DNA from: an uncultured Actinomycetes bacterium | GTDB taxonomy: Bacteria > Actinomycetota > Thermoleophilia > UBA2241 | Direction of reading: 5' to 3' | Assembly (NCBI GenBank): GCA_963725665.1 | Contig: CAVRZA010000011.1 | Coordinates: 128,001-192,000 of the forward strand | Length of the DNA: 64,000 bases | The notes under the pieces: model-generated | Databases searched by the model: none | The model's input: the letters and a program-made list of their open reading frames with translations, nothing else | Told to the model about the DNA's origin: nothing | Translations under genes and position numbers: made by a program | In this document: positions 49,221 through 51,223 of the stretch, one piece after another | How the letters are laid out: the number at the start of each line of letters is the position of its first letter | Numbering within the stretch: position 1 is the stretch's first letter

Positions 49221-49345
49221 GGAGCAACTGTTGGTCCTTGACGGGACCCCCAGAGACGAAGGGCGCTCACCCCGTGGGCCCAACGTGGTGAGCGCCCTCT
49301 TCTTGTCCTCCAATCTCTCCCACAGGACCCAGAGGAGGAATCTCT

Positions 49346-50770
49346 ATGACGATGTCAAGCCGCCGCGGCGGACCTGAACATCGTCTCGTCGCGAAGCATC
49401 GCCCAGATGACGTTCACCCGCCGCCGGGCAAGCGCGATCACGGCTTGGTGATGGCGCTTGCCCTCGGCCCGCTTGCGGTCGTAGAAGGCGCGCGAGGGCG
49501 GGCTGCGCAGACTGGCGAAGGCGGATTGGTAGAAGACCCGCTTAAGGACCTTGTTGCCCCCCTGCATACGGCGCACGTTGCCGCTTCGTTTGCCCGAGTC
49601 GCGGGCCACCGGGATGAGGCCGGCGTAGGCGGCCAGGTGGTCGGCGGAGGCGAAGCTGCTCAGCTCGCCCACCGCCACCAGGAACTCAGCGCCCAGGCGG
49701 GGGCCCATGCCCGGCAGGCTCACCAGGATCTCCGCCTGGGGGTGGGAGAAAAAACGCCGCTCGAGCTCCTGGTCGAGCCGCGCCAGGCGCTCCTTTGTGG
49801 CCAGCACCTCGCTCGCCAGGTCGGCGACGATCGCGGCGCTCACCTCCTCGGCGGGCAGAGAAACGCTCTGGGCGCCCGCCGCCTTAAGGGCGCTCTCGGC
49901 CAGCTTGGCCGCTCCCCGGCAGCCGCGGGCGCGCAGGTAGGCCTCCAGGCGGCGGGCGCCGGCGCGGCGTACCTCGACCGGCGTGCGGTAGCGCTGCACG
50001 AGGAGCAGGGCGCCCTTGGTGGTGAGGTCCAGGGCGCGCTCCAGGCCGGGGAAGACGCCCACCAGCGCCGCGCGCAGGCGGGTGACGGCCCGTGTCTGGT
50101 CTTGAACCAGGTCGCGCCGCCGCGAGGTCAGCAGGGCCAGCTCGGCCAGCACCGCCTCGCTGGGGCGCAGCTCGGAAAGGTCACGGCGCGTGCGTGCCTG
50201 TTCGGCGATGATGCGCGCATCGCGGGCGTCGGTCTTGGCCTCTCCCCGGTAGGCGTCGCGGGAGCGGTTCACGGCCACGCCCGGCAGGTAGAGCACGCGC
50301 TCCTCGCCGCTCCACAGCACGGCCAGGGCGAGGGCGGCGACGCCGCCGGGGATGTCGAGAGCCCAGGTCGTCTGGCCGGCCTGAGCTCTGGCCTCGGCGA
50401 TCAGCCGCCGCAGCTCGTCCTCGTCGTTCTCCACCCGGCGAGAGAAGACGAGGCGTCCCTCCTCATCGATCGCCGCCGCCCAGTGGAAGTCCTTGCCCGC
50501 GTCGATGCCCACCCACAGCCCAGCCATGGCCACCTCCTCGCTTCCGCCGACCCCTTGCCCGTGGAGCACCCCGCCGGCACCTCCCTACACAGCGATCGCT
50601 CGCCGATCTCTATCAGCGGTCAGGGCGTCCAAAGGGGCCGAGGGGCCATTCCTCCCGAGCCATGCGAGCGGCAGAGACATGACAGCCATCCTCGACCCTT
50701 CTGGGCGTCCCGGACGCTACCGCAAAGAGGGCTCACAGCAAAGAATCCGTACGCCACAGGAGAAAGGTAG
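49346..50770 (+). CDS. Antisense ORF spanning the IS (hed-like)
   Basis: 474-aa ORF from ATG 7 nt after host GGAGG to TAG at the last bases of the element; coding status uncertain. Confidence 0.4.
   Translation: MTMSSRRGGPEHRLVAKHRPDDVHPPPGKRDHGLVMALALGPLAVVEGARGRAAQTGEGGLVEDPLKDLVAPLHTAHVAASFARVAGHRDEAGVGGQVVGGGEAAQLAHRHQELSAQAGAHARQAHQDLRLGVGEKTPLELLVEPRQALLCGQHLARQVGDDRGAHLLGGQRNALGARRLKGALGQLGRSPAAAGAQVGLQAAGAGAAYLDRRAVALHEEQGALGGEVQGALQAGEDAHQRRAQAGDGPCLVLNQVAPPRGQQGQLGQHRLAGAQLGKVTARACLFGDDARIAGVGLGLSPVGVAGAVHGHARQVEHALLAAPQHGQGEGGDAAGDVESPGRLAGLSSGLGDQPPQLVLVVLHPAREDEASLLIDRRRPVEVLARVDAHPQPSHGHLLASADPLPVEHPAGTSLHSDRSPISISGQGVQRGRGAIPPEPCERQRHDSHPRPFWASRTLPQRGLTAKNPYATGER
49355..50527 (-). 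CDS. IS110 family transposase (bridge recombinase)
   Basis: WVGIDAGK, ALDIP, KTDARDA RuvC-like domain; SLPGMG, LAAYAGL, DSG Tnp domain; SD GAGGAGG; 390 aa. Confidence 0.95.
   Translation of the reverse strand: MAGLWVGIDAGKDFHWAAAIDEEGRLVFSRRVENDEDELRRLIAEARAQAGQTTWALDIPGGVAALALAVLWSGEERVLYLPGVAVNRSRDAYRGEAKTDARDARIIAEQARTRRDLSELRPSEAVLAELALLTSRRRDLVQDQTRAVTRLRAALVGVFPGLERALDLTTKGALLLVQRYRTPVEVRRAGARRLEAYLRARGCRGAAKLAESALKAAGAQSVSLPAEEVSAAIVADLASEVLATKERLARLDQELERRFFSHPQAEILVSLPGMGPRLGAEFLVAVGELSSFASADHLAAYAGLIPVARDSGKRSGNVRRMQGGNKVLKRVFYQSAFASLRSPPSRAFYDRKRAEGKRHHQAVIALARRRVNVIWAMLRDETMFRSAAAA
50565..50757 (-). ncRNA. IS110 bridge RNA with target- and donor-binding loops
   Basis: Guide segments at 50674-50682, 50648-50655, 50606-50613 and 50581-50588 match the junction sequences; flanking stems and a GCGA tetraloop on the minus strand; RNA ends approximate. 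Confidence 0.85.
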
Positions 50771-50776
50771 GGAGAC

Positions 50777-51223
50777 ATGAACAGTGAGCAACCGCCAGAG
50801 GGACCGCAATGGCGCATTCTGGGCGCCGAGAGAGGCGCTGACTTGGCCGAACACCTGGCCCACGAGCAGGAGGCGGTGCTCATGCTCGGCGACGACGTCT
50901 TCGTGTTTCACCGGCTAGGCGTCGGCACTACGCCGGAGCTTCCCTGGAAAGACGAGACCGAGGAACTCACGCTGCACAGAATGGGGTCTTTTGCCCCACT
51001 GGAGGAGCACGAGCGCGCATACATAGCGCAGCAGAACAGCGAGGCAGAGTACAAGCAGGCAGCCGAGAAGGCGCTTTCCTTCCAACTGATGGGGGGGCAA
51101 CAGGTCATCCGGCTGTACCGACACACACACGCGCACGCGTTCGCCGAGGAGATCCACAAAGAGGGTCTTCGACTGACCATTGTCGGCCTGCTCGATGACG
51201 TGCGAGCGGCGTCAATAGCCTAG
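50777..51223 (+). CDS. Hypothetical protein (IS110 target gene)
   Basis: 148-aa ORF of lower GC; its original SD lies on the other side of the IS. Confidence 0.75.
   Translation: MNSEQPPEGPQWRILGAERGADLAEHLAHEQEAVLMLGDDVFVFHRLGVGTTPELPWKDETEELTLHRMGSFAPLEEHERAYIAQQNSEAEYKQAAEKALSFQLMGGQQVIRLYRHTHAHAFAEEIHKEGLRLTIVGLLDDVRAASIA

Follow-up and report, generated by a model that had tools for sequence, protein, structure and literature searches.

For IS621, an insertion sequence of Escherichia coli, passages of two papers that we draw on in part (Durrant 2024, PMC11208160; Hiraizumi 2024, PMC11208158) describe a bridge RNA that reads the target with one loop and the element ends with another. According to the first, a loop carries left target and core in the same sense on its 5' side and the reverse complement of core and right target on its 3' side; perfect guide matches are strongly favored, tests of core reprogramming were included, and a promoter is formed across the joint of the excised circle. 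The second adds handshake guides, dinucleotides that fit the non-cognate partner. Another line of work, likewise used here in single passages, concerns IS900 of Mycobacterium avium subsp. paratuberculosis and IS901, which prefer to insert between a Shine-Dalgarno (SD) sequence and a start codon (PMC2942039); for IS900, the target motif CATGNNNNNNTCTCCTT and an open reading frame (ORF), hed, running antisense across the element have been reported (PMC8141618). Entry between ribosome-binding site and start codon has been known since the 1990s, and the means of recognition was unexplained in the literature that we found: no paper combining IS900 and bridge RNA appeared in the literature searched, the sole preprint that mentioned IS110, Shine-Dalgarno and bridge RNA was unrelated, and the two founding papers of 2024 on bridge and seek RNAs had 0 occurrences of IS900 or of ribosome-binding-site targeting. 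Here we analyzed an insertion sequence in a window of 64,000 nucleotides (positions 128,001 to 192,000 of contig CAVRZA010000011.1, assembly GCA_963725665.1) from an uncultured actinobacterium of the Thermoleophilia (UBA2241). Its guides tie a known mechanism, the bridge RNA, to a known insertion preference, that of the IS900 type. A preliminary description of this DNA had taken as established that IS900-type elements insert between ribosome-binding site and start codon, which the passages cited bear out in print (PMC8141618, PMC2942039), and had proposed that RNA guides explain the preference; the layout under the IS621 rule, the two copies in this genome with one close relative, and the constancy of guides in Streptomyces-type relatives all support that proposal.

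The element lies on the minus strand and has 1434 bp including a single copy of a TC core. Judged from its sequence, it belongs to the IS110 family (bridge recombinase plus bridge RNA), and to the IS900-like kind within it. The recombinase matches PF01548 (DEDD_Tnp_IS110; E = 1.5e-46, residues 7-161) and, in its C-terminal part, PF02371 (Transposase_20, the Tnp domain; E = 4e-20, residues 267-350). The left end has 245 nt of non-coding sequence up to the recombinase start codon, and just 15 nt lie beyond the stop codon. Terminal inverted repeats are absent as judged by comparing the two unrelated ends (CCCTACC... and ...CATAGAGAT) without a formal repeat scan, and no target was duplicated beyond the 2-nt core, TC being all that the junctions of the two copies have in common. 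We know of no rule that makes a CT core obligatory in the IS110 family, and the TC core is therefore not taken to exclude membership. The genome (3.73 Mb, 12 contigs, 68% GC) contains exactly two copies, which are identical across all 1433 bases compared. Relatives of the recombinase were found at 86% identity and below; the loci gathered for comparison were 79 from species-representative genomes and 26 from metagenomes, only three of the latter (L124, L129 and L135) exceeding 70% identity. The species-genome relatives fell into Rubrobacter-like metagenome-assembled genomes (MAGs) at 62-68% amino acid identity and Streptomyces and other actinomycetes at 48-54%; the latter include the Streptomyces, Amycolatopsis and Rhodococcus elements L061-L123 (Streptomyces-type below), which are probably the IS116 group.

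Both copies stand in antisense orientation to their host genes, directly after GGAGGA and with 3 nt between element and start codon, as the preliminary description had stated for the first of them (Table 1). On the plus strand, with slashes at the element boundaries, the junctions read ...CCCAGAGGAGGA/ATCTC...GGTAGGGA/GACATGAAC for copy 1, where GGTAGGGA is followed by GACATG, and ...AAGGAGGAGGAGGA/ATCTC...GGTAGGGA/GGCGTGAAG for copy 2. The host start of copy 2 is the GTG of a histone-deacetylase-family gene (Pfam, 4.4e-92). Both host starts appear to be real, because a paralogue of the 148-aa ORF of copy 1 (67% DNA identity; G000:C1:59934-60382, minus strand) and the orthologues of the copy 2 host in 11 related genomes begin at the same residues; the paralogue has a GTG start behind the purine tract GAGAGGGGGAG and is free of the element in front. 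The closest relative with both flanks, the metagenome locus L124 (81% amino acid identity), also occupies the SD-start interval in antisense orientation: it has GGAGGGAGGA-GCA on one side and, on the other, 6 nt away, the ATG of a gene for ribosomal protein S17 that is complete (L124:60-353). A polar insertion before S17 should be lethal; L124 is a 1.9-kb metagenome contig, and a second S17 copy or a chimera is possible.

We found that the left end of the element has two predicted loops whose sides match these flanks and the element's own ends. The minus (RNA) strand from 50682 to 50674 reads UCAUGUCUC, the reverse complement of GAGACATGA, and GGAGGA follows at 50650-50655, in agreement with the earlier description of the two target guides. 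In element orientation the target is TCATGTC-TC-CTCC. The left flank of copy 2, TCACGCC+TC, differs from the guide at two positions, both with guide U over target C (rU.dG with the bottom strand). By sequence and co-variation, loop 1 reads the target, loop 2 reads the two ends of the element itself (with AUAGAGAU and GUAGGGA), and the IS621 strand rule is obeyed. Both handshake dinucleotides likewise fit the opposite partner: AU is the reverse complement of AT, the last two bases of the element, and GG fits the final two target bases, which are TC in copy 1 (one wobble) and CC in copy 2. In all relatives the left donor guide, on the 5' side of the donor loop, has 7-8 nt of pairing with the right end, and the final one or two guide bases misfit the core in both groups (AUAGAGAU-C vs ..GAT-TC; AUUGAGA-UG vs ..GAGA-CT).

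Table 1. Features of the element and its insertion site, in positions of the 64,000-nt window.
Feature	Position	Strand	Basis and remarks
Host Shine-Dalgarno tract GGAGGA	49334..49339	+	now 6 nt upstream of the ATG of the antisense ORF
Insertion sequence	49340..50773	-	two 100% identical genome copies with differing flanks; ends from conserved/variable boundary among relatives
Antisense hed-like ORF, 474 codons	49346..50770	+	ATG 6 nt inside right end; TAG 50768-50770, 6 nt before host ATG
Putative -35 TTGACA of circle-only promoter	49353..49358	-	contains recombinase stop codon; TTGAC(A/T) conserved in relatives
Recombinase gene, 390 aa	49355..50527	-	ATG 50527, TGA 49357-49355; Pfam domains
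Two-loop bridge RNA core (predicted)	50569..50711	-	alignment of relatives; another 62 nt of left end lie 5' of the core, to 50773
Donor-binding loop (predicted)	50571..50619	-	stem CCGCUG/CGGCGG, distal hairpin with GCGA loop; helices 3-4 of alignment
Right donor guide GUAGGGA + handshake GG (predicted)	50582-50588 + 50580-50581	-	reverse complement of left-end TC+CCTAC
Left donor guide AUAGAGAUC (predicted)	50605..50613	-	first 8 nt equal right end ATAGAGAT; 9th base misfits core
Target-binding loop, closing stems + distal GCC/GGC hairpin (predicted)	50635..50698	-	helix 1: 13 pairs, 8 with compensatory change, 97.5% paired (66-sequence alignment)
Right target guide GGAGGA + handshake AU (predicted)	50650-50655 + 50648-50649	-	GGAGGA is reverse complement of TC+CTCC, both copies
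Left target guide UCAUGUC + UC (core) (predicted)	50674..50682	-	equals copy 1 left flank TCATGTC+TC, 9/9
Putative -10 TACCTT	50764..50769	-	17 nt from -35 across right-end/TC/left-end joint
Host ORF of copy 1, 148 aa	50777..51223	+	no Pfam family; ATG 3 nt from element; coding-like GC3

We consider the guide matches to exceed chance because each occupies one side, 5' or 3', of the first internal loop in a conserved structure and both co-vary with the flanks. For the left junctions, we used elements of the two groups with a recognizable left end and at least 14 nt of flank; after removal of duplicate flanks, 52 unique junctions remained. Guides were scored at the best of three registers, observed and control pairings alike, since several relatives need a one-base shift. 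At least six of the seven non-core positions of the left guide were identical to the element's own flank in 39 of 52 junctions, and all seven in 18, while six or more matches with another element's flank occurred in 0.2% of 2246 pairings (means of 6.0 and 2.9, respectively). Similarly, at least five of six positions were identical at 34 of 40 right junctions vs 6.5% of 536 mismatched pairings. Guide U over target C accounted for 22 of 51 left-guide mismatches, as expected for rU.dG with the bottom strand. In L124, the guide UCAUUGC-UC faces the flank TCATTGC-TC (7/7), and the guide GGGAGGA fits the right flank TC+CTCCC (7/7). At the right junction of another relative, L055, the post-core flank CCTACG is closer to the element's own left end (CCTACC) than to its right target guide; this may represent insertion beside a donor-like sequence or the remnant of another copy.

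The structure that would present these guides was assessed in an alignment of relatives, because folding of the single sequence and an Rfam search were uninformative. In the 66-sequence alignment (stems drawn by us; the row of L124 entered with shifted coordinates), 91.7% of 1769 cells in left-end stems were paired and 11 of 27 pairs had changed on both sides, the target-loop stem contributing most of these (Table 1). When stem partners were slid by 1-3 columns, 34-57% were paired. Two sub-threshold Rfam hits, MIR950 over a flank hairpin (49259-49300) and DUF3800-IV over the target loop, were dismissed as chance matches. That hairpin is strong and G+C-rich (GGGCGCTCACC...GGTGAGCGCCC, then TCTTCTTGT), is situated some 35 nt before the host SD and resembles a terminator directly before the 148-aa gene, whose promoter is thus unexplained.

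Insertion at gene starts extends to many of the relatives. At 31 of 56 unique sites, a start codon (ATG, GTG or TTG) no more than 14 nt away begins a long ORF with a coding-like G+C content at third codon positions (GC3); random positions drawn from those flanks gave 195 of 1800. The criterion overlooks ORFs that are short (L122) and sites whose hosts have a lower GC content (L053, L054). Some same-clade relatives insert elsewhere. Among Streptomyces-type elements, the right guide ends with GAG in 30 of 30 distinct guides and with GGAG in 28; in the left guide, A occupies position 2 in 31 of 31 and U position 3 in 23. At 36 of 43 unique junctions, the core is preceded at 4-6 nt by CAT, CAC or CAA. 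Since these guide positions are kept while those facing the spacer vary, recognition of the SD core and of the start codon appears to fall to the constant positions, and that of the spacer to the variable ones, which follow the flank.

At the left-end joint, the host ATG is now preceded by TAG-GGAGAC, with GGAG 2 nt upstream, where one stood before; this GGAG is composed of left end, core and flank. The purine tract that the element end was said to supply is present (AGGAGAAAGGTAGGGAGAC-ATG, 50759-50779). Among Streptomyces-type elements, GGAG is regenerated at all but two left junctions, because the left end begins with CC like the right half of the target. At the right-end joint, the host GGAGGA faces ATCTCT-ATG, and this ATG opens the antisense frame. 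The same arrangement was found in L124, where the frame spans 473 codons and its TAG lies 6 nt ahead of the S17 ATG. In copy 2, an upstream TetR-family ORF now terminates within the element (...KEEEESL-stop) with an altered C-terminus; minus the element it would end ...EEEEA-stop, its TGA overlapping the host GTG. ORFs are thus not always left intact, contrary to what had been supposed.

Mechanistically, if IS621 is a guide, the element would excise as a circle, in which a TTGACA-N17-TACCTT promoter, assembled where the right end, TC and the left end meet, would drive the left-end RNA. The conserved TTGAC(A/T) includes the stop codon TGA of the recombinase, and the coding end overlaps this candidate promoter half. 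The target loop would pair with the target and the donor loop with the element ends, and recombination at the TC core under these guides would direct insertion into the SD-start interval, in antisense orientation to the gene every time. The inserted element leaves the host ATG with GGAG 2 nt upstream and the host SD facing the right-end ATG, and the antisense frame may let ribosomes traverse the element and re-start at the host gene with little polar effect. As a whole, we give this account of an IS110-family element of the IS900-like kind a probability of about 85%.

Two accounts of the antisense frame compete. One, which we put forward tentatively and as clearly short of probable, is that the SD-targeting branch represents a complete low-cost insertion module, combining a fixed guide grammar, a rebuilt SD, a right-end ATG for the orphaned host SD and a stop-free translational bridge. 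New genes would then be reached via few guide changes and rU.dG wobble (ATG or GTG), and the hed gene would be a bridge against polarity rather than a protein with its own function, ribosomes carrying translation, and hence transcription, across 1.4 kb. The other, to which we give a little under an even chance, is that high GC and codon bias have produced the ORF as a by-product without a role, and that host expression, if kept, depends on read-through transcription and the regenerated GGAG alone. The ORF is the codon-aligned antisense frame of the recombinase gene, and in this genome such a frame stays open for 390 codons in 25% of 915 ordinary long genes and for 475 codons in 20% of 564; a single open frame therefore means little, which weighs against the translational bridge. 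Its ATG and stop codon also lie within sequences that the donor guides must conserve anyway, and the protein matches no Pfam family. Against the by-product account, among the 36 elements with both traits (3 of 52 were dropped for broken recombinase genes), the frame was free of inner stops in 20 of 22 at SD-start sites vs 2 of 14 elsewhere at similar GC3, and the other two antisense frames hold 3-27 stops. For example, L085 (GC3 0.69) has no inner stop, whereas L046, L047 and L057 have 4-9 at the same GC3. The insertion before S17, in a ribosomal-protein region, also suggests tolerated expression. Openness of the frame seems to track SD-site targeting in these sequences, but the association falls short of being established when kinship among the elements is taken into account: a test of independent pairs yielded only 3 contrasts on well-supported branches of the recombinase tree, a number too small to reach significance, and the sign test was not significant, a second point against the bridge.

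A different question is whether the guides hold a class of addresses or fix one 13-nt address, the location at gene starts being a by-product of selection for harmless places after insertion. We regard the single address as improbable. The guide is specific: the genome contains 0 free exact 13-mers and 6 one-mismatch sites, and only two copies of the element. This is at odds with the abundant target class proposed in the preliminary description; 90 two-mismatch sites exist (35 at gene starts), and 16 sites fit when wobble is allowed. The start test placed five of the 6 one-mismatch sites at gene starts, which is partly a consequence of the ATG in the motif; a shuffled-motif control for gene-start sites was not used as evidence, being trivial for the same reason. 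Besides, the guides of the same-clade relatives L046, L047, L051, L057 and L129 are directed to conserved sequences, palindromic or otherwise. On the other hand, copy 1, copy 2 and L124 precede three different genes, the Streptomyces-type guides vary yet keep their SD- and start-reading positions, and the spacer-reading positions vary and follow the flank. These observations favor guides that hold a class of addresses.

The five same-clade relatives just named carry the guides UGAGAAUGCCUC and GU(G/A)GAAGA. Their sites are near-identical and palindrome-like, ..GAACTTCCGAGAACACC/TC/TTCCAC.. (GAAC..TTC..GAGAAC), and resemble a target of the repetitive extragenic palindromic (REP) type rather than a gene start. 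Conserved sequences of other kinds are targeted by several Streptomyces subgroups. Two Streptomyces subgroups (L062, L065, L089, L093, L099 and L114; L063, L066, L075 and L082) each have one flank across species, ..CCAAAGCCG/CT.. and ..CCCAGTAGGG/CT.., respectively. In most members of both, the usual right end just after the stop codon was not found, and these elements may be longer or differently built.

The position of the core was also considered. Crossover at CT, as in IS621 and the Streptomyces-type elements, would give an empty site one GGA shorter (..CCCAGAGGAGACATG). Since the right junction contains a repeated TCC, both readings are compatible with the two junctions by themselves; CT is the core in Streptomyces-type relatives, and the right donor guide GUAGGGAG fits CT+CCCTAC too. 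However, right ends of the close group are conserved through ...(A/G)GATTC and left ends from (C)TCC(C/T)TA, and in 15 of 15 close-group elements outside this genome with listed right ends the variable flank begins directly after ..(A/G)GATTC. That flank matches the right guide when the core is TC, and positions 9-10 of the left guide are UC. With TC, each handshake fits the opposite partner instead of its own, the arrangement described as productive in the passage cited (PMC11208158). A CT core in register with the Streptomyces relatives was rejected for the close group, whose conserved right ends run through TC. Because the family-wide boundaries between conserved and variable sequence fall there (right end ...CATAGAGAT+TC, left end (C)TC+CCTA), the core appears to be TC and the empty site, reconstructed rather than directly read, is supported; a CT crossover here is very unlikely. 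Recognition of the site by the recombinase protein itself, with coincidental RNA matches, has a negligible probability given that guide and flank change together over 37 distinct left and 31 distinct right guides and that compensatory changes preserve the stems presenting the guides.

Several observations weigh against the proposal that RNA guides direct this element to the SD-start interval. The preference is not clade-wide. The genome offers only two copies, one of them with two non-Watson-Crick positions, which sits poorly with the IS621 preference for perfect matches; several relatives require a one-base register shift, and the 9th base of the left donor guide misfits the core. Folded as a single sequence, the left end was no better than shuffles (z = -0.56), and its minimum free energy structure pairs the guides and is uninformative. 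Rfam gave no family above threshold and no match to a bridge-RNA family, and the search for sequencing runs returned 15 DNA runs and no RNA run. The empty site inferred at the outset has its reconstruction around a TC core supported by the family boundaries, but the empty allele itself was not found in 40 related genomes, which are without the element and without a close orthologue of the 148-aa gene, and neither it nor the circle joint was found in 4 sequencing runs, which gave short element contigs, none spanning the joint. Contigs from the runs end at 49332 and 50774, as any repeat boundary yields, and prove nothing further.

Compared with IS621, as described in the passages used (PMC11208160, PMC11208158), the element has the same two Pfam domains, an RNA predicted in the left end upstream of the recombinase, a target loop followed by a donor loop, 5' sides that would read about 9 nt of the bottom strand including the core and 3' sides that would read the top strand, handshake dinucleotides, and a candidate promoter across the circle joint. 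It differs in its TC core (CT in IS621), in its target (the SD-start interval instead of a REP element), in a longer right target guide (6-7 nt) and in a left donor guide whose pairing does not extend into the core. IS900 and IS901 were compared by their published descriptions in part (PMC8141618, PMC2942039) and a quoted 24-nt IS900 motif. They share insertion between SD and start codon in one orientation, the target parts CATG ... TC TCC, the absence of inverted repeats and, in IS900, an antisense ORF (hed) across the whole element; the left end here has ACCTTTCT from position 6, as in the 24-nt motif. In contrast, CATG is 2 nt from TC here (CATG-TC-TC-CTCC) and 6 nt in the IS900 motif CATG-N6-TCTCCTT, the host belongs to another actinobacterial lineage, with the closest relatives in Rubrobacter-like MAGs, and the antisense ORF has its own ATG. 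The Streptomyces-type elements resemble the present one in RNA architecture and stems, in SD-start sites occupied in antisense orientation, in an antisense ORF that starts 5 nt inside the right end and in the GGAG regenerated at the left junction. They differ in the CT core, in their ends (right, CATTGAGA; left, CCGTAAG) and in the start codon, which is 4-6 nt from the core and of which the guide reads the first two bases only.

In this element and its relatives, the link between bridge RNA and ribosome-binding-site entry can be followed in the sequence, one guide being the SD and the other the complement of start codon and spacer. They provide a natural example of bridge-RNA guides that diversify while keeping a safe class of address. 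From a practical point of view, they represent natural bridge systems with a TC core, 6-7-nt right guides and high-GC Gram-positive hosts. The unexplained hed ORF of IS900-type elements gains a testable reading; if it is indeed part of a low-cost insertion module, this would explain how such elements are tolerated inside operons, even before the gene of ribosomal protein S17.

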